NCBI GenBank assembly: GCA_963736875.1
Contig: CAVTQH010000002.1
Location: 5,294-69,293 of the forward strand
Reading direction: 5' to 3'
Source of the DNA: Candidatus Amesbacteria bacterium
GTDB taxonomy: Bacteria > Patescibacteriota > Microgenomatia > CAZETR01 > Amesbacteraceae
DNA length: 64,000 bases
Part shown: piece after piece, positions 10,082-36,650 of the stretch
How the letters are laid out: each line of letters opens with the position of its first letter
Numbering within the stretch: position 1 is the stretch's first letter
Translations under genes and position numbers: made by a program
Notes under the pieces: model-generated
Told to the model about the DNA's origin: nothing
Seen by the model: the letters and a program-made list of their open reading frames with translations, nothing else
The model's database searches: none

Positions 10082-10615
10082 TTAAATCGAATTATTGTCT
10101 CCCTTGGCCAGCTCTTCTCTGATTTTTCTCACGCATTCTTCAGGTGACAAATTTACGGTATCCAGTTCTATGGCTCCCGGATAATATGTACTTTCCAGTT
10201 GCTCATAGATATTCTTTATAGCTTCATCCCCCATCGGCTTCCGGCATCCCTCTTTAATCCCCGGCCTGTTCCTGTCTCTCTCCTGCAGCACCTCCAACGG
10301 GCATTTAATCTGAAATACCTTGGCCTTGATTCCTCTTTTCCCTGCTTCCTCTGCGGCTAGCGGAATGATAAACGGGTCAAAAAATATCTTTTCCATTACT
10401 GCGGAGAACCCCCTGTCCAACAGATAAGTCAGTGTCGCCAGCGCTGCCTCATCAACATACTTTTGTTCAGCCAGGGTCGCCTCAGCCGCAAAAAATTCCT
10501 TGAAGTTGTCTACTTTAAGCCACACCGTCTTCTCATCAAAATTCCTTATTAGTTTGGCTATTGTTGTCTTGCCGCTCGCCGGTGCCCCTCTGATTATTAC
10601 CAAGAACTGTTCCAC
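10082..10615 (-). CDS. P-loop kinase (AAA_33 / zeta-toxin-like small kinase family)
   Basis: Walker A GAPASGKTT near the N-terminus; ~175-aa size typical of small nucleotide/metabolite kinases. Confidence 0.5.
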   Translation of the reverse strand: MEQFLVIIRGAPASGKTTIAKLIRNFDEKTVWLKVDNFKEFFAAEATLAEQKYVDEAALATLTYLLDRGFSAVMEKIFFDPFIIPLAAEEAGKRGIKAKVFQIKCPLEVLQERDRNRPGIKEGCRKPMGDEAIKNIYEQLESTYYPGAIELDTVNLSPEECVRKIREELAKGDNNSI

Positions 10616-10660
10616 AGTAAAATTCTACCATTTGCACAGTGTCTTAAATATTAACCGATT

Positions 10661-11129: not shown

Positions 11130-11870
11130 TTATGAAACCGCTTTTATGGCAGAGTAAGTAATACTTTCTGAATACCCTTCCAGAAATCCGGGAGTTTCTT
11201 TATGAATATCCATATCCTTAAATCCGGCCTGTTTTATCAGACTTAGATACTCATCTTTCATAATTGCCCCGCTTACACAGGCAGACAGCATCTCTTCATT
11301 ATTTCTGATTTCCTCCGGCAGGGGTTTGGTTAATACTGTATCCGAAACCATCATCCTTCCCCCCGGCTTCAACACCCGGTAAATCTCTGCGAACACTTTT
11401 TTCTTATCCGGAGCCAAGTTAATCACGCAGTTGGAAATCACCACATCTGCTGAATTATCAGGAAGCGGCAAGTCTTCTATGTCTCCCTGCTTAAACTCCA
11501 CATTTGTAAATCCTGCCTTTTTGGCATTTTCGCGGGCTTTAGCGAGCATTTCATCAGTCATATCGATGCCGATTACCTTTCCTTTTTTGCCAACTCTCGG
11601 TGAAGCTAGGAAAGCATCAAATCCTGCCCCCGACCCCAAATCCACTACTACTTCCCCTTCTTTTAGTGAAGCGATGGCCACCGGATTTCCGCAGCCCAAT
11701 CCCATATTCGCCCCAACCGGAGCATTTTCTATTTCTTCCTGGCTGTAACCGATCTGTTTAGTCTGTCTTTGGATAGCTTGGTTTGAGCAACTGCAATTAC
11801 ATCCGCAGCCTCCCGCAGCTTTGGCTATTTCCGCATATGATTTCTTTACAACTTCTTTTATCTGTTTCAT
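11130..11870 (-). CDS. arsM: arsenite S-adenosylmethionine methyltransferase
   Basis: Cys-rich N-terminus ([10 protein letters not shown]), MGLGCGNP, class I SAM MTase motif [10 protein letters not shown], then [10 protein letters not shown]...GRMMVSD. Overall ArsM-like layout. Start re-chosen at MKQIKE (ATG at 11868-11870). Confidence 0.65.
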
Positions 11871-12036: not shown

Positions 12037-13938
12037 ATGAAAAGCCGTCTTCTGCGCAATATTTTTATAGTCATTGTATTAACTCTCTCGGTTTCCGCCG
12101 GTGTATTCCTGGTCGGCCAGAAGACAAATTGGTTTGGTCTGGCTGCGGGGATTAATTTGGCAGTTAACCCGGACCAATGCCGTCAGGGTAAGGTATCTAC
12201 CGCTCCCCAAATCTGGGTTCAATGCACCACCCAACCGGCAAATTTAGGCTGGGTAAATGGTAATGCCGGAAGCAGTAATTCCCATTATCTCGAAGGTGAA
12301 TCCATAAGTTACCGGATAAACGTAAATGGTACAGGTATGTCCGGCCACAAAATCAGGTTAATAATAGGTTATGAAACCACTAAAAGTTCCAGGCGGGCGA
12401 TAGACTATCTTACCTCAAATAACCGTTGGCAGACGCCGGAAACAAATTCCTCGGCTTTTCCTGATCTTCCCTGTAATGGTATTTCCGGTTGTTTCGACCC
12501 GCCTGTTTTAACAACGATACCTCCTCCACCGGGTAATATCAGTGTTGATCCCTCTAAAAGCACCACCAATTCAAACACTCTCGCTCCCTGTATTGGAGGG
12601 TCCGGAATTCTGCAACCGGCAACCAGCTTTAATACTCTGCCTCCGGATGAAAGGAAAATGGCTTTTTATGGCATTGGCGGAACTCCGTCTTTGTCCTATT
12701 ACGGTCCGTCTACAGACTGGTCAAAAACTTTCGACCAGACTCAAAAAATGCAGATTGAATTCTTAGCAAACACAGATGTGGTCGTACTTGCCTTTGGAGG
12801 ACATATTGCTAATCGTTTGGATTGGGGATGCGCTAACGGAGCACAGTCGGCAGGAGGTATTTCCGGTTCACCTTATCATTTACACACTTACGAACTGGCA
12901 ATAGATGCCAATAATAATGGTTCATTCGACGATGCCGGTGAGACCCAGTCCATCGGCAATCAGGATCTGCAGCTTTCCGCTGACGCGGTTGTGGTAATTC
13001 CGGAACCTACACCTGTACCGACTTTGCCCGCAGAACCAACTCCCACAGTAACCAATACCCCTGGCCCTACCCCGACACCCACAAGGACTCCTACACCAAC
13101 CCAAACTCCTTCCCCTACCCCCACTCCGACACCACTTCCGGGTTCCACTCCGGTACCCACCACCACTCCCGTCCCTACTTCCACCCCTACTTCTACTCCC
13201 ACACCAACCCGAACTCCTACTCCTACACCAACTCAGACTCCCACCCCGACACCAACCCCGACTCCTACCCCCAGTCCCCGTCCGCCCGATGCCGCCGCTC
13301 CGCCCAACCGGTGCAACGGTTCATGCACAACAGACACCAATTGTGATTATGGTGAAGACGGCACCAAACTGATTTGTGTAAACCGTCTCTGCCGTCATCC
13401 TTCATGCTCGGATCAGGAGTCCTGCCACTGTCCTCCGGGCTGGCCCGCCACCACCCCGCTCCCGACCCCGGTACCGGTTGCTTCTACCGTCACCGGCTGT
13501 ATCGGCGACCGTATATTAAACGACATTAATAGAAATGGAATACAGGATCAGGGCGAAACCGGCCTGGGCGGAATCAAAGTGGAATGCTATTCTGCCGACA
13601 ATAAACTGGTGTCTTCCGCCGTAACCGATAGCCGCGGTTACTACAAGATCTGCGGCTTAACCCCCGGGGATTACACCGTCAAATTCAATTTACCTGCCGG
13701 CTACACCTTTAGCCCTGCGCTTTCCGGAACTGACCGTACATTAGATTCCGACCCTTCCCCCTCTACCTCAATTACAACCCGCGTCCAGGTTTTAGGCGGC
13801 TCCACCGTCTTGGACATTGACGCTTTAGCTTACCGGGAAGCGGAAACCACTCTTCCCTCCTCCGGCACAGTCTGGCCGACTTTATTGGTAGTATTTTCAG
13901 GCTTGCTGCTTATCCTTTTAGGGCTTGTCCTTATCTAA
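12037..13938 (+). CDS. secreted/cell-surface protein with PT-rich linker, SdrD-B/Cna-B-like domain and C-terminal sorting-signal-like tail
   Basis: N-terminal signal/TM. Pro-Thr repeat linker ([15 protein letters not shown]...). [23 protein letters not shown]...[24 protein letters not shown] is SD-repeat B-like. Ends with TLPSSG plus a hydrophobic tail. Confidence 0.6.
13010..13290 (+). repeat. low-complexity codon repeat (Pro-Thr linker)
   Basis: Reiterated ccnac/acncc codons encoding the PTPT linker; antisense ORFs here (GVGV-rich) are artefacts. Confidence 0.8.
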
Positions 13939-17847: not shown

Positions 17848-18120
17848 CTCCCCCGCAGGGATTCGAACCCCGAACCTTGTCGTTACAGAAATCCTCTTGT
17901 TACCAAAAGGTCTGGACTATCTCATGTCCGACGCAAATCGGACCCAGGTATATAGTCTCTACACATTTAGCCCAATTCACATCGGACATTTAGCTCGGGA
18001 TTTTCCTTCGAAGTTTGAGTCAAGAAGGGGTTCCCCGAATTAGCCTGGTTTTTCAATCCCGATTGCTCGGGAAAGCTGCCTCTCCGACAGCGACCTGCTC
18101 TACCGTTGAGCTACAGGGGA
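17848..18120 (-). tRNA. tRNA-Asn(GUU) interrupted by a ~201-nt group I intron in the anticodon loop
   Basis: On the minus strand, 5' exon 18120-18087 = TCCCCTG TA GCTCAACGGTAGAGC A GGTCG CTGT. 3' exon 17885-17848 = TAA CGACA AGGTT CGGGG TTCGAAT CCCTG CGGGGGA G. The 7-bp acceptor stem is complementary across 273 nt. Spliced product is 72 nt with anticodon loop CUGUUAA. Confidence 0.75.
17886..18086 (-). ncRNA. group I intron (no ORF) within tRNA-Asn
   Basis: 5' exon ends in U that can pair with G of an intronic GCAGC guide (P1 gcugu/gcagc). Intron ends in G (...ttctg). P/Q/R/S-like core elements attcggggaa / aatcccgagc / gtagagactata / gagatagtccag, with GACTA:TAGTC pairing (P7). Confidence 0.65.
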
Positions 18121-18173
18121 ATGTTAATGAACCTACACATTATAAAACAGATGATCCTGAAACGGGAGTACTT

Positions 18174-18533
18174 CTACCTTCTCTCCAGCGATTCCAAAAA
18201 CCAATTCACGAGCCACAAAACCACCGAAAACAGAAAAGCTGACCAAAAAGACACTATGTCAAATCCCGGCACAATCGCAGCTGTCAGAAGCACCATTAAC
18301 GTATTTATCACCAGGGTAAACAATCCCAGGGTCAGAATATTAATGGGAATTGTTAATAAAAGTAATATCGGCCTCAAAACACTGTTCAGTATCCCCAAAA
18401 CTATGGCTACCGCCACCGCGCTCCATACCCCGGACATCTCCACCCCGGGCACTACATACGCAGCTATCCCTACCGCTACCACTCTGATAATTAACTTTGT
18501 CAGTCCGCCCATATACTGGAGGCTATTGTACAT
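18174..18533 (-). CDS. phage-holin-family-4-like membrane protein
   Basis: [42 protein letters not shown] matches the Phage_holin_4_2 consensus (RPIL..LT.P...LTLGLF.LVINALML.L.A..VPGF). Confidence 0.5.
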
Positions 18534-18739
18534 TTTACCTTCTCCATTGTAAATTTATCCTCATGCGCATCCTGGTTACCGGCGGTGCCGGTTATATCGG
18601 TTCCCACATGACCCGCCTGCTGGTAAAGACAGGCCACACCCCGGTTGTTTTGGATAGTCTGGAATTCGGTCACAGGCAGGCTCTCCTCTCCTTCTGTAAT
18701 ACTCTATGTCTGGTAATGTCGGCGACAAAAAAATATTAA
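18497..18739 (+). CDS. galE: UDP-glucose 4-epimerase, N-terminal Rossmann fragment (frameshifted)
   Basis: [41 protein letters not shown] is a GalE N-terminus; reading degenerates after ~aa 62 and the frame switches to the next ORF. Confidence 0.6.
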
Positions 18740-19545
18740 ACCGGGTGTTTCAAAATAAAATTGACGCTGTCATCCACTTTGCCGGGTATATTTCCGTTCC
18801 CGAATCGGTCGCGGATCCGGCCAAATATTTCACTAATAATTTGGTCAAACCCCTCTCCTTACTTGAATCCATGACCAGCCACAGCGTTAAATATTTGATT
18901 TTTTCCTCTACAGCCGCCGTTTACGGCCAGCCGGAAACTGTTCCCATTCCGGAAAATCACCCCAAAAATCCTACGAGCCCTTATGGCTTGTCGAAGCTTT
19001 GTTTCGAGCAGCTTCTTGGTTACTATGACCGTCAGTTTGGCCTTAAATCAATCTCCCTGCGCTATTTCAACGCCTGCGGGGCCAGCCCCGACGGCCGGTT
19101 TGGTGAAGACCATTCACCGGAAGGCCATATCATCCCCAATGCTATTAAAGCCGCAGTAAACAAAAATCCTTTCACTCTGTTTGGTACCGATTTTCCGACT
19201 CCCGACGGCACTTGTATCCGCGATTATATTCACATAGAAGATCTCTGTTCCGCCCACCAGCTTGCTATGGACGCTTTAAAAAACGGGCACAAAACCGACG
19301 TTTTTAATGCCGGTACCGGCACCGGCCATTCCAATAAAGAAATTGTCAAAGCGATTCAGAAGGTTGCCGGTGATTTCCCGGTCAAACTTGCCCCCCGCCG
19401 TCCCGGAGACTCGGCCGAGCTGATTGCCGATTCCGCCCGTCTTTCTAAAGAACTGGGTTGGAAACCCCAATCCTCTGATATCAATACCATCATCAAATCC
19501 GCTTACAAGTGGCACTCCTCTCACCCGAAAGGTTACTCCGGCTGA
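18706..19545 (+). CDS. galE: UDP-glucose 4-epimerase, main body (continues from 18497..18739 after a frameshift)
   Basis: [24 protein letters not shown] (YxxxK), [32 protein letters not shown]; collinear with GalE to the C-terminal HPKGY. Confidence 0.8.
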
Positions 19546-19740: not shown

Positions 19741-20838
19741 TTAATCCAGATAATCTTGCAGTTTCTTTCTTCTAGACGGATGTTTCAGTTTTCGTAAGGC
19801 CTTGGCCTCAATCTGCCTGATTCTTTCCCGGGTTACTCCAAACTCTCTTCCCACTTCCTCAAGGGTCATCGGGTTTTTCCCGTCCAGTCCAAACCGCATC
19901 CTTAAAACCCTTGCTTCCCGGTCAGTCAGTGTCGCCAGTACTTCTTCAATATTCTCCTTTAAAAGTTCCCTTGAAGCCGCCTCTATCGGTGACGGTTGTG
20001 ACGTATCCGCAATAAAATCCCCCAGCATCGAATCTTCCTCATCCCCGACCGGTGTCTCCAGGCTCGTAGTGTCCTGGGCAATTTTAAGTATTTCCCGCAC
20101 CCGGTGAGCCGTCATTTCCCCCATGGTCTGGGCGATCTCTTCTGCTGTCGGTTCCCGTCCCAGACTCTGCATCAGCTGTCTTTGCGTCCGGATCAGCTTG
20201 TTTATCGTTTCCACCATATGTACCGGAATCCGGATGGTTCTGGCCTGATCGGCAATTGCCCGGGTGATTGCCTGCCTGATCCACCACGTCGCATATGTTG
20301 AAAATTTATATCCCTTTCTCCAGTCATATTTCTCCACCGCCCGGATGAGTCCCTGGTTTCCTTCCTGTATCAGATCCAGAAGCGACAGGCCCCGCATTAC
20401 ATACTTTTTTGCAATCGACACCACCAGCCTCAGATTACTTTCAGTCAGTTTCTTTTTGGCTCTCCTGTCACCTTTTTCAATTTTTTGGGCTAAACTAATC
20501 TCCTCCTCGGGTTTTAGAAGCGGAATTTTGCCAATCTCCCGCAAATACATCCTTACCGGATCGGTGGTTACCGCTCCTTCCACTTTGGTCAGTGCTTCAA
20601 TCTCCTTCTCCAGCTCAGCTACCGCTTTTTCATCTTCCTCCACCTCCTGCTCTGTAATTGTTTCAAAAACGTCTACTCCTGCCGTCAGCAGTTTTCCGAA
20701 CAACTGATCAAGCTCCTCCAGCCTGTCTTCGGCATCCGGAAATGTTTCCAAAATCTCATCCAGGGTCAGAAAGCCCTGATGTTTGCCCTTGTTTATAAGG
20801 GTTTCTGCCTCAGCTGATAATTTAACTTGTTTCGCCAT
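19741..20838 (-). CDS. rpoD: RNA polymerase sigma-70 factor
   Basis: Region 2 [54 protein letters not shown]; region 4 [29 protein letters not shown]. Confidence 0.92.
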
Positions 20839-20944: not shown

Positions 20945-22681
20945 TTACTTCTCCTTCGTCAACTCATTCAGCCTCCGGGTCAGCTGTAATAGTTCTTTTT
21001 CCCGGCCTGTATGAGTTCCTTTTGCCAGAAAAGCGGTAATTTTTTCCCTGATGGTAATCTCCTCCAGATCTTTAACGGCTTTTTCCCATTCTTTTTCCGC
21101 TCCCTCCTCGTCAACTTCATCGTCCAAAAGCATCAGTTCCGCCGTTTTTTCTTTCAGTTCCGCGGGCAGGGAAGCTATCAGGTCTTTGGTATTGGACAAT
21201 TTGGTTTCACTGCTTGCAAAGTGCTCCACCACCCGTACCCAAAATCCCGTTCCGAACAACCCCGCCACCGCCGGGCTGATCAACTGCTTTACTTTCTTGT
21301 TTCGCAAAGCCAGTCCCGTCACGTATTCTTCCACCATTTCCCGGCGGGGTAGTTTCTCCGTATCATCTGTTTTTTTGCTTTCAGAAGCCGTGTCCGGACT
21401 CTTTATTTTCCCCATCTGTTCCCTCAGCACATCCAAATCGATTTCCGTTTTCCCCGCCAGCTCCTTTAAATACTCATCCTTTCTTACCGGATCACTGATC
21501 ATGTCCAGAAACTGCAGCACGTCTTTGGCTGCTCTGGTCTTGCCCTCGGCTGAAAACCCGAATTTTTTAACTGCCGTATCAATATAAAAACTGTAAATTG
21601 ATATCACTTTTTGCGCCATCTGTCTCCACTTATCAGGTTCCGTTGTCGCTACATCCGCCACATCTTTTATCCCTTCTCCCGCCTCCGACCAGTCAATTGT
21701 CTCTACAAATAAACCGGCTTTCTCGGCAATTTCAATTCCCCTTCTGGCTGCCGATCCTCCCGCCAGATCCGCATCCATCCCCAAGACCACCCTGTCTCCC
21801 AGCCGTCTCAAAAGCTCCACCTGCTTTCCTGTCAAAGCCGATCCCTTAACCGCCACCACGTTCGGCACACCCGCCTGCCAGGAGGCTATGGCATCCAGCT
21901 CCCCCTCCACCACCACCGCCCATCCCAGTTTTTTAATCTCGGCTTTATTAATATCCAATCCGTACAGCAGGTCTCCCTTATGATATATTTCCGTCTCCGG
22001 CGTGTTTACATACTTGCCGGTTTGTTCATCCCCTCCCGGCATCACTCTGCCGGCAAATCCGACAGTCTGCCCCCGGTGATTGTTCAAAGGAAACATTACC
22101 CGGTTTCGAAACCTGTCATATCCTCCTTTCGGGCTGGGTACTACCAGTCCCGCCCTCTCCAGATCCTGAATTTGATAGTTTTTCTTCCCCGACAGGTACT
22201 TGATCAGAAAGTCCCACCCCTCGGGCGCAAAACCCAATTTAAACGTCTCCACCGCCTTCTCCTTTATTCCTCTCTTTCTTAAATACTCCAGAGCTTCTTT
22301 TCCCACCCTGTGCCTGGTCAGTAAATAATGGTAATACTCCCCCGCGAAATTATTGATCGTAAATAGCCTCTCCCTCTCCTCCTCCCCCTTGGTCGGAACA
22401 TAACTTTCCAGAGTTACCCCCGCTCTTTTGGCCAGAGTTTTAAGCGCTTCACCAAACTCTACCCCCTCAATCTTTTGTAAAAAAGCGTAGGCATCCCCTC
22501 CCGCTCCGCAGCCGAAACATTTAAATATCTGGAGCTCCGGATTAACCATAAACGAGGGCGTCTTCTCTCCGTGAAACGGGCACAAACCCTTGAAATTTCT
22601 CCCGGCCCTGGTCAGCTTCACATACTCCCCCACCAGCTGCGCCATGTCCACCTTGCTTTTAATCTCTTCAATCTGATCCAT
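20945..22681 (-). CDS. dnaG: DNA primase
   Basis: Zinc ribbon CPFHGEKTPSF...CFGCGAGGD; TOPRIM VVVEGELDAIASWQAGVPNVVAVKGSALT. Start re-chosen at MDQIEEIK; the track ORF extends to 22774. Classic dnaG-rpoD adjacency. Confidence 0.88.
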   Translation of the reverse strand: MDQIEEIKSKVDMAQLVGEYVKLTRAGRNFKGLCPFHGEKTPSFMVNPELQIFKCFGCGAGGDAYAFLQKIEGVEFGEALKTLAKRAGVTLESYVPTKGEEERERLFTINNFAGEYYHYLLTRHRVGKEALEYLRKRGIKEKAVETFKLGFAPEGWDFLIKYLSGKKNYQIQDLERAGLVVPSPKGGYDRFRNRVMFPLNNHRGQTVGFAGRVMPGGDEQTGKYVNTPETEIYHKGDLLYGLDINKAEIKKLGWAVVVEGELDAIASWQAGVPNVVAVKGSALTGKQVELLRRLGDRVVLGMDADLAGGSAARRGIEIAEKAGLFVETIDWSEAGEGIKDVADVATTEPDKWRQMAQKVISIYSFYIDTAVKKFGFSAEGKTRAAKDVLQFLDMISDPVRKDEYLKELAGKTEIDLDVLREQMGKIKSPDTASESKKTDDTEKLPRREMVEEYVTGLALRNKKVKQLISPAVAGLFGTGFWVRVVEHFASSETKLSNTKDLIASLPAELKEKTAELMLLDDEVDEEGAEKEWEKAVKDLEEITIREKITAFLAKGTHTGREKELLQLTRRLNELTKEK

Positions 22682-22724
22682 TGGCCCGATTATACTTCCT
22701 TCTCCACCAATCGCCCCAAACCCG

Positions 22725-23579
22725 CTACTGTTGGGGAATTTGTAGCAGAGCTGACGTACTCTCCCCACCCACATACGTCGGTAGTTTACCGTCCCATTTC
22801 TCGATCCATAGTTTTCTCAGAAGCGCATCTGAAATTGTTGTTCGTTGCAGTTCCTGCTCCCGGGCTTGTCCCTCTGCCGCGGTTATCCTCTGGGCTTTCT
22901 TAAACTCTTCCTGTGCTGCTTTGTTCTTCTCCACCTCAATCTTTACCAGCTCTACCTGTTTGGCTTTAATCGCCTCCACATAAGATTTATCAAACGCAAT
23001 CTCCCGTACCCCGATCATGTCCAGAATCAATCCGTTAGTCTCGAACACCGGTTTTAATTTATCAAATATCGCCTCCTGCACTTTAAGTGAGCCCTCACCT
23101 GTATACAAGTCCTCTGCGGAATATCCTCTGGGGACATTTCTCACCCACACCCGGGATTCAGTCTTTACAATCTTTTCTACCAGAGCTCCCTCAGGCCCGA
23201 TATTCTGAGCCACCCAGGTAGCCTTGGTCGGATCTACCGAAAACCTGATCGTATACGAAATATCCACCGGCTGCCCGTCCTTGGTATTTGTATCCACCGG
23301 AATATCCCGGTAATCGGCTGTAGACAACACTGATTTATCAGAAGGCGCTGTTTCATAATTTATCTTTTTGGTGTTGTAGTACAAAGTTTTTTCGACCAGC
23401 GGCACGATAAAATTTGCCCCCGGAGAAAGTACTCGTCCTGTCACCTGGCCAAACCTGGTTACTACGGCCACCTCGCCCGCTTCAACCGCCCTAAATCCTA
23501 AAAGCAGTACTACCACCACCACTACTACCACCCCCGCCGACTTGGTAAAAGCAGAAATCAATCTCAAAATATCCTTCAT
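22725..23579 (-). CDS. SPFH/band-7 (prohibitin/HflC-like) membrane protein
   Basis: N-terminal TM then GEVAVVTRFGQVTGRVLSPGANFIVPLVEK, the SPFH core pattern. Confidence 0.7.
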   Translation of the reverse strand: MKDILRLISAFTKSAGVVVVVVVVLLLGFRAVEAGEVAVVTRFGQVTGRVLSPGANFIVPLVEKTLYYNTKKINYETAPSDKSVLSTADYRDIPVDTNTKDGQPVDISYTIRFSVDPTKATWVAQNIGPEGALVEKIVKTESRVWVRNVPRGYSAEDLYTGEGSLKVQEAIFDKLKPVFETNGLILDMIGVREIAFDKSYVEAIKAKQVELVKIEVEKNKAAQEEFKKAQRITAAEGQAREQELQRTTISDALLRKLWIEKWDGKLPTYVGGESTSALLQIPQQ

Positions 23580-28957: not shown

Positions 28958-29050
<93 letters not shown>

Positions 29051-29077
29051 AGGTCTTTTTAGCTATATAATTTTATC

Positions 29078-30268
29078 ATGTTACGGGAACTTTCCGGCCA
29101 TCGCTTCCTCACCCATCTTGCCTTGTTTTGCATCCTCAATATCTTCTTTTATCTTTTCATTGCTACCCAATATCACCGGATTCCTTTCAATCGGCTCACT
29201 TATACTCTCGGCTACCATCACTTCCTCCCCGATCCCCGGGCTTCCGGTGGTAAATTCAGTCTTCTTTCCGCCATGGCTCAGAGTGACTCCCAGTGGTACT
29301 TTAAAATCGCTTCCCAGGGATATTCTTATTCCCCCCGTCCCCAGACCATCCGGGACAAATCCGTGATGCAAAATCTCACTTTTGCCTACTTTCCCCTCTT
29401 CCCTCTTCTCCTTAAACTCACTGATTTCTTCTTCTCCCGCATCGAACTCTCTGCTTTCGTTCTTACTAATCTTCTCCTTGTCTCCACTTTCTCCAGCTTG
29501 TATCTGGTCATCTCCCGCCTTTATTCTCCCTCTCTGGCCGCCAAAACCACCTGGCTGGTCTTCCTTTTTCCCTTCTCCGTTTACTTCAGAAGCTATTACG
29601 CCGATTGTCTCCAGCTATTACTGATTATCTGGTTTACATATTTCCTCATACAGAAAAAGTTCCTTCCCTCGGCCGTTTTTCTGGGTCTTCTCAACATCAC
29701 TAAAGGTATCACTCTTCCCCTAAATCTTCTTCTCTTTATTCCCTTGGCCGTGCAATTTCTCAGGCACCGTCTCCGCCCGGTTAAAGCGTTTTTGTATATC
29801 CTGATTGCCGCATTCCCGTTAGGTATATGGATAGCGTATAACTTCTTTCAAACAGGTAGTCCCTTCTTTTTCCTTACCGTCCAATCGTCCTGGTTTCACT
29901 TCCATTCCCAGCTTCCTCCCGCGGCTTACAACCTGCTTGTAGTTTTTTCCCTTCCCCGCCTTCCTTTTCACTCCGACCACTACTCACAAATTGATGTCCT
30001 CATCGCAATTACCACTCTCTTTCTCATCATCAGAAGCCGTAAGTTCCTTTTCCCGCCTTTCTGGTGGACCAGCCTGATTATCTGGGCCGTCCCTTTTACC
30101 ACCAGTGATCTTATGTCCTTTGGCCGGTATCAGGCTGTTTCCTTCCCCGTCTTCCTCTACCTCTCTTCCCGCCTGAAATCCTTTCCCCACTTCATCCTTC
30201 TCTTTCTTTTTACTGTTGTTTTTTTCATCACCTCCCTCTTTTATGTAAATTGGTATTGGGTCGGCTAA
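29078..30268 (+). CDS. polytopic membrane protein (GT-C-like)
   Basis: ~12 TM helices; Phe/Leu-rich. Confidence 0.35.
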   Translation: MLRELSGHRFLTHLALFCILNIFFYLFIATQYHRIPFNRLTYTLGYHHFLPDPRASGGKFSLLSAMAQSDSQWYFKIASQGYSYSPRPQTIRDKSVMQNLTFAYFPLFPLLLKLTDFFFSRIELSAFVLTNLLLVSTFSSLYLVISRLYSPSLAAKTTWLVFLFPFSVYFRSYYADCLQLLLIIWFTYFLIQKKFLPSAVFLGLLNITKGITLPLNLLLFIPLAVQFLRHRLRPVKAFLYILIAAFPLGIWIAYNFFQTGSPFFFLTVQSSWFHFHSQLPPAAYNLLVVFSLPRLPFHSDHYSQIDVLIAITTLFLIIRSRKFLFPPFWWTSLIIWAVPFTTSDLMSFGRYQAVSFPVFLYLSSRLKSFPHFILLFLFTVVFFITSLFYVNWYWVG

Positions 30269-31746
30269 TTCCACCCGCTGGTATAAACTACCGCCGTGTC
30301 ATCTTCGTAAACTTTTTTCCAGCCTTCCTTTTCCAGCTCATCTGTCAGCTTCTTTTGCTCACCACCCCCGACAAATCTCTTAAGCCATGGTATTTCTGAC
30401 AGGTCTATTATGGGTTTGGCAATTTTTCCGTCCCCTCTTGGCCACAACACCACCCCTATCCCGTATTTCTTAAACAATTCTTTAAACTCGCCCTCATCCT
30501 CAATCTTTATATAATCCTTAAATGCCCAATCACTCTCACCAACAGGTGCTTTCCACCTCCAGCTCGGCATCCGCCCGTCGACAAATACTTTTTCCCCGGA
30601 TAATTTCCATATCAGATACCCTCCCCACCCGTAGTTGGAAAAAAGTCTTCCCTCAAAATTATTCTGCCTCAAAAACTCAACTGCCTTTACCGGATAACTT
30701 ATCCCTTTTCCTGCCGCTGTCTGCCAAAACACCACCCCGGTCTCTTGAACAAATACCACTGCCGCCACCAGAGCCAGCACCAGATAAAACTGTTTGGCCC
30801 TTTTTAAAGCCAGTTTATCCCTTTTGATCTTCTCATATCCGATCCTAATATTTTCAGCGGCTATGGGTATTCCGACTATCATAAGAAGCGGAGCATTTCT
30901 CAGACTGGATAATGCCGCCGCAAACAGGATTGCCGCCACCGCCAGTCTCCATTTTTCCCTCCCCCACCCGTAGATCTTTATTAAAGCGAAAGCCAAAGCC
31001 ACCACCATCCAAAATCCCAGTTCTGCCCTGACATAAAAAGGCTGCCATTCGGCAATATTGCTCCTCAATCCGGTGTCTGAAATCTGCATCCATACCTCAT
31101 GCCATAATCCGATTCCATACGGATTTACCAAAGTCGCTAAAAGTCCCAAACCCCACACCATCATATCTGAAGTTTCAATTTTCCTTTGTTCCCAAAATTT
31201 CACTCCCAAAATTATTGCCAAGATTACCGGCCCCAGCATAAATCCTCCGTGCAAATTCGCCCAAACCGTAAATAAAATCGGTGTTATCCACCTCCATCTC
31301 TTCCATGTTTTTTCCTCCGTTACACGCATCAGTATGGCCACAAACAGCCAGTCCTCCACTTGCGGTCTTATTCCAAACCGCACCAGCAACACCCCCGTTC
31401 CCATTAATATCGGTGTCAATCCCCAACTCCAATTCGAAACCGGAATAATCACCATAATCGCCAGAATCGCCATTGCCGAAAATATCGCCGCCAGCCCTGC
31501 TATCCCAATTTCAGGGTACAATTTAGCAATAATCATATTCGTCAACCATTCGTGGTCCACAAACGGATAACTGGGCATGGTATAGGAAAAAGGGTCCGTC
31601 TTGGGAATTCCCCGGGTTATTAGAATTTCCCCCATCCGTAAATGCCACCCGAAATCCGGATCCAGTGTTTTCCATCCGATAAAAGTAAATATTGCCCACA
31701 ATATCAACATTCCCGATATAAATAACCACCGGCTTTTGTTTCTCAT
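30265..31746 (-). CDS. polytopic membrane protein with C-terminal extracytoplasmic domain (paralog 1)
   Basis: N-terminal DPDFGWHLRMGE...SYTMPSYPFVDHEW motif region, ~9 TM, then a ~150-aa soluble C-terminal domain (YGWGGYL.WK...FVDGRM). Confidence 0.5.
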   Translation of the reverse strand: MRNKSRWLFISGMLILWAIFTFIGWKTLDPDFGWHLRMGEILITRGIPKTDPFSYTMPSYPFVDHEWLTNMIIAKLYPEIGIAGLAAIFSAMAILAIMVIIPVSNWSWGLTPILMGTGVLLVRFGIRPQVEDWLFVAILMRVTEEKTWKRWRWITPILFTVWANLHGGFMLGPVILAIILGVKFWEQRKIETSDMMVWGLGLLATLVNPYGIGLWHEVWMQISDTGLRSNIAEWQPFYVRAELGFWMVVALAFALIKIYGWGREKWRLAVAAILFAAALSSLRNAPLLMIVGIPIAAENIRIGYEKIKRDKLALKRAKQFYLVLALVAAVVFVQETGVVFWQTAAGKGISYPVKAVEFLRQNNFEGRLFSNYGWGGYLIWKLSGEKVFVDGRMPSWRWKAPVGESDWAFKDYIKIEDEGEFKELFKKYGIGVVLWPRGDGKIAKPIIDLSEIPWLKRFVGGGEQKKLTDELEKEGWKKVYEDDTAVVYTSGWN

Positions 31747-32519
31747 ATCTTCTCCAAAATTACCGCCACATTATCCTCATACACTTTGGTCCATCCCCGG
31801 GCAAGCAGTTCCTCCGCCAGATCAAAACCTTCTTCCGGCCTTCCTCCCTGCCTTGACCATTTCAAAAGAAACTTGGTCTCCGAAAATCCCTTCCGGCTTT
31901 CTAATATTACAGTCCTGATTCCGTACTTATTCCAGATTTCCTCAGCCGGAATCTCTCCTTTTAATACCCCGAGGTAATCCTTAAAAACCCTGTTACTCTC
32001 CCCCGAAGGAGTGTCATCCGCCACCCAATAGTCCATTCTTCCGTCAATAAACCACTTTTCATCAGGCATTTTCCATTCCAGATACCCGCCCCAGCCGTAT
32101 TTATTAAAAGCTCTTCCCGGATAATCGTGAGTCTTTAAATATTCCACCGCTCCTACCGGAAAATTTCTCCTTTCATAAAAAACCGCCCGGGTCATTGTGA
32201 TTACCGCCTCCCCCGCAAAAATCACCCCGCTGACAATCAGCAACAATTTTTCAAATCCCCTCCACCTGTTCCCGGCTTCCTTGTTTTTCTTTATTCCGGC
32301 TTTTAATAAAATCCAGCTGTCGGCAGCAGCCAAAGCCAGCGCTATCGCTCCCAATGGCCCATGCCGTAAATTCCAAAGTGCCGCCAGCCATAATCCCGCT
32401 ATTACACTCATTCGCGCAAAATCCGCCTTTTTGCCCGCATACCACCCCACCGCAACCATCGCCACCAGTGCCCACAATCCCAGGTCCAGTCTGTCATAAA
32501 AAGGTCGCCCATTCGGCAA
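31743..32519 (-). CDS. C-terminal half of paralog 2 of the 30265..31746 family
   Basis: AVEYLKTHDYPGRAFNKYGWGGYLEWKMPDEKWFIDGRM aligns with the C-terminal domain of paralog 1. Confidence 0.45.
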   Translation of the reverse strand: MPNGRPFYDRLDLGLWALVAMVAVGWYAGKKADFARMSVIAGLWLAALWNLRHGPLGAIALALAAADSWILLKAGIKKNKEAGNRWRGFEKLLLIVSGVIFAGEAVITMTRAVFYERRNFPVGAVEYLKTHDYPGRAFNKYGWGGYLEWKMPDEKWFIDGRMDYWVADDTPSGESNRVFKDYLGVLKGEIPAEEIWNKYGIRTVILESRKGFSETKFLLKWSRQGGRPEEGFDLAEELLARGWTKVYEDNVAVILEKI

Positions 32520-32636
32520 TTGTCCCCCGGTTAATTCCCGTGCTGGCTGTTTGTCTGATTACCTCCGCCCAGGTACGTATCCCGTAAGGGTTAATAAAAG
32601 TCGCGATTATTCCCGACCCCCACCAGAACCAGTTTT

Positions 32637-33212
32637 TTATATCCGTTTTTCGTCTCCGTAATGGCCTTTATCCCCAGCCACACCCCGGCAATACCTATTC
32701 CCAAGCGGAAAACTGCCGTGTAAATTAACCCAAAAAAGCATTAATACCGGATACCATTTCCTCAGCTTTCTCCACCCGGCTTCATTCCATAGCCAACGCA
32801 CTAAAATCGCCAGCAAAAGCCATGATACTACCTGCACCCTCACCCCGAACCGGGACAGCATCACCGACCAGGTTAATAATGCCGCCGTCCAGCCAATTTT
32901 CCCTTCTTTTAAGGGTACCGCTATTAACACTGCTCCAACCGCTATCACGGCGTAGATTGCGGCCAGCCCCGTCATCCCCAACCAGGGAAACAGTTTGTAC
33001 CAAAGTACCTCTGTCCCCCACCCATAATCTACAAACGGATAACTGGGCATTGTGTAGGAAAACAGGTCCCTTGCAGGAATCCCCGTCTTGGCAATTACTT
33101 CTCCCATCCGCAAATGCCACCCGAAATCCGCGTCCAGAATCATGGCCCCGTTTGCCGCAAACACCAGCCACACTCCCGCCAAAACCACCCACCCCCGCTT
33201 CCCGATTTTACT
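32637..33212 (-). CDS. N-terminal half of paralog 2 (disrupted copy)
   Basis: MSKIGKRGWVVLAGVWLV...DADFGWHLRMGEVIAKTGIPARDLFSYTMPSYPFVDYGW aligns with the paralog 1 N-terminus. Ends in junk (GNRYCRGVAGDKGHYGDEKRI). Start re-chosen so as not to overlap the tRNA at 33247. Confidence 0.4.
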   Translation of the reverse strand, partial: SKIGKRGWVVLAGVWLVFAANGAMILDADFGWHLRMGEVIAKTGIPARDLFSYTMPSYPFVDYGWGTEVLWYKLFPWLGMTGLAAIYAVIAVGAVLIAVPLKEGKIGWTAALLTWSVMLSRFGVRVQVVSWLLLAILVRWLWNEAGWRKLRKWYPVLMLFWVNLHGSFPLGNRYCRGVAGDKGHYGDEKRI

Positions 33213-33246
33213 CATGACAACAATTTTACCAGCGAATATCTCCACC

Positions 33247-33321
33247 CGAATGCTAAAATTAGCTTTGAGCACCCATAGTTCAACGGATAGAATAAGGGCT
33301 TGCGGAGCCTTTGATGACCGT
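33247..33321 (+). tRNA. tRNA-Arg (anticodon reads GCG)
   Basis: GCACCCA TA GTTC-AACGGATA-GAAT A AGGGC TTGCGGA GCCTT TGAT GACCG TTCGATT CGGTC TGGGTGC G CCA. Confidence 0.6.
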
Positions 33322-33361
33322 TCGATTCGGTCTGGGTGCGCCATATTCCAACATAAATGAA

Positions 33362-33450
33362 GGTGGGGTGCAGGAGTGGCTTAACTGCCAGGTCTCGAAA
33401 ACCTTGGGTCCGTTTACACGGGCACGCGAGTTCGAATCTCGCCCCCACCG
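33362..33450 (+). tRNA. tRNA-Ser(CGA)
   Basis: GGTGGGG...anticodon loop CTCGAAA, long variable arm, GCGAG-TTCGAAT-CTCGC, CCCCACC-G. Confidence 0.75.
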
Positions 33451-33525
33451 CACCAGAAAGCTCCCTTAGCTCAATGGAAGCGGCTTCGCCTAATCCATTT
33501 TGCTTTCGGTCGCTCATTTACATTC

Positions 33526-33597
33526 GCTCCCTTAGCTCAATGGATAGAGTAGCAGTTTCCGGAACTGCTGATGTGAGTCCGATTCTCACAGGGAGCG
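33526..33597 (+). tRNA. tRNA-Arg(CCG)
   Basis: GCTCCCT TA GCTCAATGGATAGAGT A GCAGT TTCCGGA ACTGC TGAT GTGAG TCCGATT CTCAC AGGGAGC G. Confidence 0.8.
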
Positions 33598-33601
33598 CCG
33601 A

Positions 33602-33865
33602 TTAAATCTTATTCTCCAGAGGAAATTTCTCCTGTACCCACTTGGCTGTCTTATCCATCCAGGTAGCCTGCGGTTTCTCAAACAATAAGTACTTTTCCAT
33701 CACCTTTTCCACTTCATTATCTTTACTCCCCTCCACCGGCAGATAAAATCTCCCCATTACCCCTGTTTTTAACTCCAGTGCCAATAACTTGGTCCCCAGC
33801 TTTTCCTCCCACCACCACCTTGACAACTCCCACCACATATACAACCGGCCGAATGCTCTTATCAC
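33602..33865 (-). CDS. bPH (bacterial PH-like) domain membrane protein, C-terminal part (frameshifted)
   Basis: LELKTGVMGRFYLPVEGSKDNEVEKVMEKYLLFEK is clean coding sequence; the preceding 15-20 residues look out-of-frame. Confidence 0.4.
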   Translation of the reverse strand: MIRAFGRLYMWWELSRWWWEEKLGTKLLALELKTGVMGRFYLPVEGSKDNEVEKVMEKYLLFEKPQATWMDKTAKWVQEKFPLENKI

Positions 33866-34115
33866 CCTTGTTAGTAATCGAATATTCCACCTGCTCCGGA
33901 GGGGTTCTGGTTATTGCATAATAGTAAAAAGCCCCGGCAATAATTACCAATAAAAGCATGAATTCACGGGCAAAAATCAACACCAGTCCGACTAAAATAC
34001 CCAATACCACCAATACCGACCGTGTTTGTTCCTCTGCCGGTTTATAAGGCCTGCTCTTGGCCTTCCAGGAAAGCAGCACTTTCTCCTGCTCCACCCGGGG
34101 TAGTTCATCTGCCAT
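33723..34115 (-). CDS. bPH-domain membrane protein, N-terminal part (frameshifted)
   Basis: Charged N-terminus, two TM helices, EYSITNKGDKSIR bPH-like start. After ~aa 90 it degenerates into VVYVVGVVKVVVGGKAG. Overlaps 33602..33865 by 143 nt in another frame. Confidence 0.4.
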   Translation of the reverse strand: MADELPRVEQEKVLLSWKAKSRPYKPAEEQTRSVLVVLGILVGLVLIFAREFMLLLVIIAGAFYYYAITRTPPEQVEYSITNKGDKSIRPVVYVVGVVKVVVGGKAGDQVIGTGVKNRGNGEILSAGGGE

Positions 34116-34179
34116 GTTTTAAATATAGCACAAATACTCCGCTCTCTTAAATGTTATAATTTTGAAGCTAAATCCATCA

Positions 34180-34270
34180 GGAAGGGTCGCATAGTGGCCT
34201 AGTGCGGAGGTCTTGAAAACCTCTACCCGATGCTCACGTCGGGTCGCGAGTTCGAATCTCGCCCCTTCCG
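34180..34270 (+). tRNA. tRNA-Ser(UGA)
   Basis: GGAAGGG...GAGGT-CTTGAAA-ACCTC, long variable arm, GCGAG-TTCGAAT-CTCGC, CCCTTCC-G. Confidence 0.85.
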
Positions 34271-34391
34271 CACCAACTTTCAGTTGCGAAGAAAGAGACC
34301 GGATAACAAAGTATTGCTAGCCAACGCACACCATCCCGCCCCTTTCACACACAACCCCACAGGTCAACTTCTTTCTTTCTGGTATCAACAG

Positions 34392-34479
34392 CGGAGGAGG
34401 TGGGATTCGAACCCACGTGAGCCTTGCAGCTCAGGAGTTTAGCAAACTCCCCGAATGGACCAGACTATCGGACTCCTCC
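34392..34479 (-). tRNA. tRNA-Ser(GCU)
   Basis: Minus strand GGAGGAG...GGAGT-TTGCTAA-ACTCC, long variable arm, GTGGG-TTCGAAT-CCCAC, CTCCTCC-G. Confidence 0.85.
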
Positions 34480-36264: not shown

Positions 36265-36650
36265 GGGGATGACGGGTATCGCCAGATAAGCACCTTGAAA
36301 TTTCGGCAAGCCGAGCTTGAATCACGCTCGTAAAACAGATTCAAACCAAAGTGCTGATTTAAAAGCACAAGTGAAAGGTTTTTTAGCTAGTCTAAATCCT
36401 TTTACCCAGACTCGCCCCGCGTACGTTTTTAACGCTTAAGCTGGGGTGATCCGGCACCTTAAATTTGCGTCCTTAATCGCAGTTTAAAGTGAAAACCTAA
36501 TTAAGGTGCTCTCCAAAAGATTATGGTTAGTCTCATTGGGGAAAAGATAATTAACCGCCAGCCGTTAGGAGCTTTATCCTAAACAAGCTTGTAACAAACC
36601 GAAATCCGAGACTTATTTGCACGAGGGTTCAACTCCCTCCATCTCCACCA
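36265..36650 (+). ncRNA. ssrA: tmRNA (transfer-messenger RNA)
   Basis: 5' GGGGATGACGGG... and 3' ...GAGGGTTCAACTCCCTCCATCTCC-A-CCA form a tRNA-Ala-like acceptor/T-arm. smpB is encoded immediately downstream. Candidate tag frame begins at a GCA codon ~100 nt in and ends at TAA 36436-36438. Confidence 0.75.

Follow-up and report, generated by a model that had tools for sequence, protein, structure and literature searches.

What kind of element splits the tRNA-Asn(GUU) gene of Candidatus Amesbacteria in the middle of its anticodon, and can a gene so interrupted still give rise to a normal tRNA? These questions are raised by a locus on the minus strand of a 64-kb stretch of DNA (positions 1–64000; hereafter the window), whose features are collected in Table 1. 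Our data lead us to conclude, with high confidence, that the gene is split at U35/U36 by a 201-nt group I intron devoid of an endonuclease gene, and that this intron would splice out.

A tRNA-Asn gene split within its anticodon

Evidence that the two halves belong to one gene came from the sequence itself and from ARAGORN. When the exons are joined, ARAGORN recognises a 72-nt tRNA-Asn(GTT); when introns are allowed, the unspliced DNA is called tRNA-Asn(gtt) i(35,201). The split gene, its 201-nt insert and the 72-nt joined product are thus as the original prediction had described them. The tRNA has U1-A72 and G73, as do the intron-less tRNA-Asn genes of relatives, and its 3′ end is followed by CAA in place of an encoded CCA. 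ARAGORN finds no second tRNA-Asn gene in the 64-kb window.

Table 1. Features of the split tRNA-Asn gene and its intron (positions in the window; helices written on the minus strand).
Feature	Position	Strand	Description	Basis or support
Candidate promoter element	18135..18140	-	TATAAT box; the tRNA 5′ end lies about 15 nt downstream	Sequence reading
tRNA-Asn exon 1	18087..18120	-	34 nt, ends ...GCUGU; tRNA positions 1-35: acceptor 5′ strand, D arm, anticodon stem 5′ strand, C32 U33 G34 U35	ARAGORN, spliced and unspliced; identical to the 5′ part of the L249 gene
Group I intron	17886..18086	-	201 nt, no ORF; between U35 and U36; starts CGGAGAGGCAGC, ends UUUCUG	
tRNA-Asn exon 2	17848..17885	-	38 nt, starts UAACGAC; U36 A37 A38, anticodon stem 3′ strand, variable loop, T arm, acceptor 3′ strand, discriminator G73 at the end	
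P1	18075..18091	-	G31-C32-U33-G34-U35 and intron C1 (18091-18086) with guide G-GCAGC (18080-18075)	
P2 hairpin	18057..18072	-	6 bp, GCAA cap	Compensatory changes in 6/6 pairs; in single-sequence fold
P3 5′ strand	18044..18048	-	CCAGG; partner 17944-17948	Compensatory changes in 3/5 pairs; 99.5% of cells paired
P3 3′ strand	17944..17948	-	CCUGG	Covariation alignment
P4 and P5	17995..18038	-	P4, 18038-18033 with 18000-17995, enclosing J4/5 AA and P5	P4 and P5 in the MFE fold
P5 hairpin	18029-18024 with 18009-18004	-		6/6 pairs covary; 80% of cells paired
P6 hairpin	17970..17987	-	7 bp, GUGA loop	Compensatory changes in 7/7 pairs; 92.9% of cells paired
P7 5′ strand	17953..17957	-	GACUA; partner UAGUC 17915-17919	Invariant in the family
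P7 3′ strand	17915..17919	-	UAGUC, directly preceded by the conserved J8/7 AUGAGA	Invariant, though outside the search pattern
P8 hairpin	17926..17943	-	6 bp	Compensatory changes in 5/6 pairs
P9.0, P9 and omega-G	17886..17913	-	P9.0, AG 17913-17912 with CU 17888-17887; omega-G 17886	
P9 hairpin	17910-17904 with 17899-17893	-	GUAA loop	Compensatory changes in 7/7 pairs

The gene is easily overlooked. Neither ARAGORN at its default settings nor Rfam at its gathering thresholds reports the split tRNA-Asn gene, and the genome would therefore seem to have no tRNA-Asn and would be scored too low for completeness. Gene callers, for their part, may place false ORFs across the intron. The only ORFs over the tRNA and intron region are implausible ones on the plus strand: 18015-18242 (75 aa) and 18106-18552 (148 aa) might be annotated as genes in error. 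Nothing supports reading them as protein-coding, and we rejected that reading; both lie on the strand opposite to the tRNA, its intron and the neighbouring holin-like gene.

Two routes to a precursor transcript can be read from the upstream sequence. Transcription may start at the TATAAT box, for which there is no matching -35 element; a TTATAAT likewise lies upstream of the tRNA-Asn gene of a related Amesbacteria locus (L241). Alternatively, the gene may be co-transcribed with the holin-like gene from a promoter-like site at 18553-18525, which is the sole upstream site in a promoter scan that returned no consensus promoter directly upstream of the tRNA.

Identity and structure of the intron

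The insert matches the Rfam group I model (RF00028, Intron_gpI) over its full extent, model positions 1-253, with 38.8 bits and an E value of 2e-8 for a local search and 2.3e-6 for the whole window; at permissive thresholds this is the only such match in the 64 kb. The Intron_gpI search that had been put forward as a check on the locus thus returned the full-length match it called for, at a score below the curated gathering score of 50 bits, which is an operational cut-off and no biological criterion. A leave-one-out nhmmer profile, built from 76 relatives with the window excluded, gives a far stronger result: an end-to-end match of 163 bits (E 1.4e-49). The same profile also recovers the Amesbacteria intron of L241, which had been missed by our core-motif pattern.

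All of the elements P1, P2, P3, P4, P5, P6, P7, P8, P9.0 and P9 can be written on the window sequence, with only one non-standard pair, the outermost C.A of P5, and no family-invariant base has been lost. Folded as a single sequence the intron is more stable than its shuffles (z-score -5.15), with P2, P4, P5 and P9 recovered. The anatomical features that define group I introns are in place. U35 forms a U.G wobble with the guide in P1 at the 5′ splice site; the terminal nucleotide is a G (17886); and the P3–P8 core contains a P3/P7 pseudoknot, which makes up the catalytic core and, we presume, the guanosine-binding site. P9.0 pairs the two bases that follow P7 with the two that precede omega-G, and the loops of P2 and P9 are of a GNAA type conserved across the family. 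On each of these counts – the exon U opposite a G of the GCAGC guide, the terminal G, and the GACUA:UAGUC pairing of P7 within a group I core – the reading first made from the letters holds. Readings of the insert as a group II intron or an IStron were rejected.

The structure has two peculiarities. No convincing or consistent P10, in which the 3′ exon would pair with the guide region or loop, was found, and the 3′ exon is thus presumably held by the anticodon stem of the tRNA. Moreover, in the window copy P6 and P8 have one and the same 5′ strand (GUCCGAU), such that AUGUCCGA (17989-17982) can pair with UCGGACAU (17931-17924) across 17924-17989 of the minus strand. Because both hairpins begin with GUCCGAU, the minimum free energy fold favours a long non-native helix between P6 and P8; the predicted pairing could act as a folding trap, and it lacks conservation among relatives.

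The intron is also free of coding sequence, as had been claimed: no homologue of a homing endonuclease is found anywhere in the 64-kb window.

The intron family and its covariation

A pattern of core motifs, which forces P4 and the 5′ strand of P7, matched at least 120 contigs of a metagenome collection, and a scan of a genome collection contributed two further loci (L014 and L025). Among the 120 metagenome matches listed, these two loci and the window are at least 72 tRNA-Asn(GUU) genes split as CTGT|TAA and at least 12 tRNA-Asp(GUC) genes split as CTGT|CAC. At least 83 further genes of the compact family were in this way recovered, at least 71 of them metagenomic tRNA-Asn genes. Splice registers were set by the rule of a U at -1 and a G at omega, and the terminal G is thus required by the choice of register; after splicing, each of the 84 products is recognised as a tRNA-Asn or a tRNA-Asp. 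Intron lengths among the 84 genes run from 173 to 242 nt. Since relatives of 173-176 nt exist, the suggestion of a length close to the lower size limit holds only approximately for the window intron, the published range being 184-894 nt.

Covariation was analysed in an alignment of 77 distinct sequences, the window included; the profile alignment holds the 76 other members. Standard pairs occupy 93.9% of cells, as against 33-47% when the 3′ partners are slid by one to three columns, and changes on both sides are seen in 36 of the 55 pairs. The covariation score is 0.486 (below 0.1 in controls). On four of five measures none of 500 shuffles came up to the observed value; for the fifth, the number of pairs changed on both sides, five did. 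Each of the ten helices is paired in 80-100% of cells across the 77 sequences, and covariation is present in P2, P3, P5, P6, P8 and P9, in one pair of P9.0 (GC 22, AU 21, CG 21) and in the P1 pair just inside the intron, between intron nucleotides 1 and 7 (CG 48, GC 17, AU 9, UG 3). P4 and P7 are invariant and hence uninformative in this respect. Invariance carries weight of its own where the search pattern did not impose it: the exon CUGU, the guide GCAGC, the stretch from J8/7 into the 3′ strand of P7 and the A that follows P7 all lie outside the pattern, are invariant in the 76 other sequences and are kept in the window. In a neighbour-joining tree, drawn without support values, the Asp introns are not monophyletic.

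Several members of the collection deserve mention in their own right. Two metagenomic contigs each carry two intron-containing tRNA-Asn genes: L127 at 7455-7653 (+) and 10419-10632 (-), and L155 at 11483-11694 (+) and 12926-13137 (-), the latter pair about 1.2 kb apart and in opposite orientation. The same intron core occurs on two IMG/VR contigs classified as viral (L252, 6042-6142; L253, 975-1056). In L253 it falls within a tRNA called as split by a 768-nt insert, which probably bears an endonuclease gene; a tRNA-Asp gene adjoins this call.

The syntenic locus in Amesbacteria

The RpoD encoded in the window (19741-20838, minus strand) is 88-94% identical to proteins of Candidatus Amesbacteria and Microgenomates, which places the window in Candidatus Amesbacteria (Microgenomatia, Patescibacteria). 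The gene order around the tRNA – dnaG, rpoD, galE on the opposite strand, the holin-like gene, tRNA-Asn – recurs in relatives, and the synteny from dnaG and rpoD to tRNA-Asn is common to the window and the Amesbacteria MAG GCA_001773775.1. In GCA_001773775.1 and GCA_036826875.1 (L241-L243) the syntenic tRNA-Asn contains a 202-nt intron at 35/36; relative to the window the exons are identical at 71 of 72 positions and the intron is 72% identical. Five further lineages (L244, L245/246, L247/248, L249 and L250/251) have an uninterrupted tRNA-Asn(GUU) at this place. The intron is therefore held by some Amesbacteria and missing at the same locus in others.

The intron-less gene of L249, which scores 63.5 bits with the Rfam tRNA model, is identical at 72 of 72 positions to the joined exons of the window, and so fixes the junction CUGU|UAA to the nucleotide.

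A number of other features of the window and its relatives may be recorded here. The galE-like gene for an NAD-dependent epimerase (18497-19545, plus strand) is broken across two frames, an 80-aa ORF (18497-18739) holding the N-terminal Rossmann motif and a 279-aa ORF (18706-19545) holding the remainder; in relatives it is a single ORF of 307-336 aa. A frameshift pseudogene and a sequencing error would each account for the split. The window dnaG (20945-22774) is uninterrupted. At L207, L142 and L191 the DnaG match consists of two parts separated by over 1 kb, with the break between about residues 93 and 84 of the window protein, which suggests interruption by an intein or intron. A cluster of six tRNA genes at 28961-34479 comprises Ser and Arg isoacceptors only (Ser-GGA, Arg-GCG, Ser-CGA, Arg-CCG, Ser-UGA, Ser-GCU), and a tmRNA gene at 36265-36650 of the plus strand (Rfam, 90 bits) encodes a long tag peptide, AQVKGFLASLNPFTQTRPAYVFNA. 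All 2-kb bins of the window have negative GC skew (cumulative -7.3) and long ORFs lie mostly on the minus strand, consistent with a position inside one replichore.

Proposed splicing of the precursor and alternative readings

How the precursor would be processed follows the group I scheme. Transcribed with the intron included, C32-U35 together with G31 and the first intron base would pair with the guide G-GCAGC to form P1, placing the U35.G wobble at the 5′ splice site. The P3–P8 core would fold, P3/P7 pseudoknot included, probably with the help of the GNRA loops of P2 and P9, docked onto other parts of the ribozyme. The next step would be attack after U35 by a free guanosine occupying P7; P9.0 would then put omega-G (17886) into the same site, and the freed 3′ hydroxyl of U35 would attack after omega-G. 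Ligation of U35 to U36 would restore the GUU anticodon in a normal 72-nt tRNA still in need of CCA addition. We infer both transesterifications in the window copy from its anatomy and from experiments on relatives.

The point at which the exons join bears on the identity of the tRNA, given that a register two bases upstream would yield a tRNA-Thr(UGU) with an intron at 33/34. ARAGORN and tFind often pick that register – ARAGORN returns tRNA-Thr(tgt) for 44 of the 72 homologous genes – and the same ambiguity is documented by Nakagawa et al. (PMC13011429). Yet the intron would then end in C instead of G and lose its invariant U.G wobble with GCAGC; U1-A72 and G73, along with intron-less tRNA-Asn(GTT) matches at the same locus, one of them the 72/72 L249 gene, speak for asparagine; ARAGORN calls Asn for the window itself; and spliced products sequenced in relatives join at 35/36 (PMC13011429). 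With the L249 empty site excluding the 33/34 register, and the Thr calls in relatives with it, we give a tRNA-Thr practically no credence. It is likewise very unlikely that the gene is a pseudogene, its intron a decaying relic and the tRNA-Asn copy non-functional, with an intact second copy elsewhere in the genome. The intron is missing from the syntenic tRNA-Asn in five of the six related Amesbacteria lineages sampled and is thus dispensable for the lineage; the window copy has the strong alternative P6/P8 pairing, neither an encoded CCA nor a clear dedicated promoter is present, and the visible genome amounts to 64 kb. Decay, however, is not what the locus displays: the helices are intact but for the one C.A at the end of P5, all family-invariant bases are retained, the identity of the exons to the intron-less gene of a relative means that they have not decayed, and the 64-kb window holds no other tRNA-Asn.

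A somewhat less remote alternative, though still an improbable one, accepts the group I intron and supposes that in the cell it needs a chaperone or maturase, folding poorly by reason of its minimal scaffold and alternative pairing. The scaffold does lack the P3′–P8 insert found in the larger tRNA-Asn introns that have been published, the misfold specific to the window is predicted to be more stable than native P6 and P8, and no P10 was found. Against this, an equally compact Microgenomatia tRNA-Asp intron of 196 nt, a member of the same family, self-splices in vitro free of protein (PMC13011429), and there is neither an ORF in the window intron nor a maturase-like gene nearby.

Possible mobility and free-standing HNH genes

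A further issue is whether an intron without an endonuclease gene can still move. A gene for an HNH protein of about 100 aa, 53% identical (E 6e-41) to the HNH encoded inside published tRNA-Asn introns, stands free 29-200 nt upstream of tRNA-Asn in L241-L243 (9363-9671 in L241) and at 8 of the roughly 74 family loci whose upstream sequence is long enough (about 10%), among the loci with an HNH gene upstream of tRNA-Asn being L134, L161, L165, L177, L192 and L209. It also occurs beside intron-less tRNA-Asn genes (L244, 7531-7752; L245/L246, 6723-7019); the window has no copy. The 88-aa 'gene' called in L244 at 7519-7785, upstream of the tRNA, is what remains of a truncated HNH gene.

The free-standing HNH protein may function as a homing endonuclease from a position outside the intron. 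Possibly, although we consider this doubtful, the intron is still mobile in a manner that fits 'collaborative homing': an endonuclease encoded by a neighbouring gene would cut the uninterrupted tRNA-Asn, and the intron would spread with it and protect against it. The suggestion stems from the patchy presence of the intron at one Amesbacteria locus (the window and one lineage against five without), from the occurrence of the compact family in both tRNA-Asn and tRNA-Asp with their common CUGU target, and from the intron-type HNH genes standing free by tRNA-Asn, intron-less genes included. In the published view these introns undergo only limited horizontal transfer, as most are without endonuclease genes (PMC13011429); if collaborative homing were to prove true, the introns would be more mobile than that conclusion allows.

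Relation to known tRNA introns

Small introns in the anticodon loop are known from several systems. The Azoarcus tRNA-Ile intron and the cyanobacterial tRNA-Leu(UAA) introns (IC3) have in common with the window intron a length of about 200-250 nt, the lack of an ORF, a position in the anticodon loop, a P1–P9 core with a P3/P7 pseudoknot and a P1 formed with anticodon-loop bases; the GNRA loops on P2 and P9 are, we presume, as in Azoarcus. They differ in their sites, which range from 33/34 to 36/37 and are not at 35/36, and in their host tRNAs and phyla. A broad pattern scan of the genome collection gave, among the matches listed, mostly tRNA-Leu introns together with Arg and Ser introns of other phyla, and none of the listed tRNA-Leu introns resembles the window intron outside the core.

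The bulge-helix-bulge introns of archaea and eukaryotes also lie in the anticodon loop, mostly at 37/38; they are short, contain no ribozyme core and need protein enzymes for their removal. The window intron shares with them only the anticodon loop: the site at 35/36, the 201-nt insert and the complete group I core led us to reject a reading as an endonuclease-spliced intron.

The closest correspondence is with the introns described by Nakagawa et al. (bioRxiv July 2025; mSystems January 2026, PMC13011429), who surveyed 95 complete Patescibacteria genomes and found group I introns at position 35/36 of 15 tRNA-Asn and 3 tRNA-Asp genes, with others in Bipolaricaulota, Cyanobacteriota and Nitrospirota. 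The introns they report measure 184-894 nt and are mostly without endonuclease genes; 25 of the 28 introns at 35/36 are assigned to subgroup IA and none of the Patescibacteria tRNA introns is placed in IC. For two of them, one in tRNA-Asn (GCA_016700035.1) and one in tRNA-Asp (GCA_001029755.1), sequencing of the ligated exons established precise self-splicing in vitro at 35/36, and changing omega-G to C blocks exon ligation (PMC13011429). Earlier, Williams (2020; bioRxiv 10.1101/2020.01.27.920355) had raised the number of bacterial tRNA intron classes from 4 to 21, and it is to this survey that Nakagawa et al. credit the class 'Asn.4Ug' (PMC13011429). The two surveys used thresholds of E below 1e-4 (Nakagawa et al., PMC13011429) and of 18-20 bits and above (Williams, 10.1101/2020.01.27.920355), the Rfam cut-off having been lowered because, in their account, the Rfam seed has no bacterial introns.

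The original prediction had supposed that the Asn anticodon loop was not among the known intron sites. In light of the 15 published tRNA-Asn genes (PMC13011429) and the 'Asn.4Ug' class, that supposition is outdated; with the class on record since 2020 and self-splicing since 2025-26, the window intron is a new example of a known thing. Its likeness to the set of Nakagawa et al. extends to the phylum and class (Microgenomatia), the host tRNA, the CUGU|UAA site, the U-1/omega-G rule, the GCAGC guide and the core motifs GGCUAAUUCGGGGAA, AAUCCCGAGCUAA, GUAGAGACUAUA and GAGAUAGUCC; it is likewise without an endonuclease gene, and likewise missed by default tRNA finders. With 'Asn.4Ug', a class that rests on a computational survey without experiments (10.1101/2020.01.27.920355), it shares its group I type, its place behind the fourth nucleotide of the tRNA-Asn anticodon loop, the U at -1 and the G at omega.

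The nearest published relative is the tested 196-nt Microgenomatia tRNA-Asp intron of GCA_001029755.1, which has the same compact architecture and 66% global identity, whereas identity to the two published tRNA-Asn introns compared is 53-55% (55% to the tested one). Most of the 15 tRNA-Asn introns are larger (205-606 nt), with a P3′–P8 insert or an HNH gene in the P1 loop, and the window intron lacks the P3′–P8 insert of the larger ones labelled IA1/IA2. The window genome itself is outside the 95 complete genomes of Nakagawa et al., and exact-match searches with three window proteins gave no counterpart in the public collection.

Insertion site, host phylum and homology to published members thus all identify the window intron as belonging to the Patescibacteria 35/36 group: it is a further example, from the same phylum and class, of an intron type already described. 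Our data change nothing in what is known of the working of such introns. What they add to the 2026 paper is strong evidence of covariation throughout the secondary structure, an intron-less allele that matches the joined exons exactly, and variation in presence and absence at one syntenic locus – and with these an Amesbacteria example of the small introns that are kept in essential tRNA genes by bacteria with very reduced genomes.
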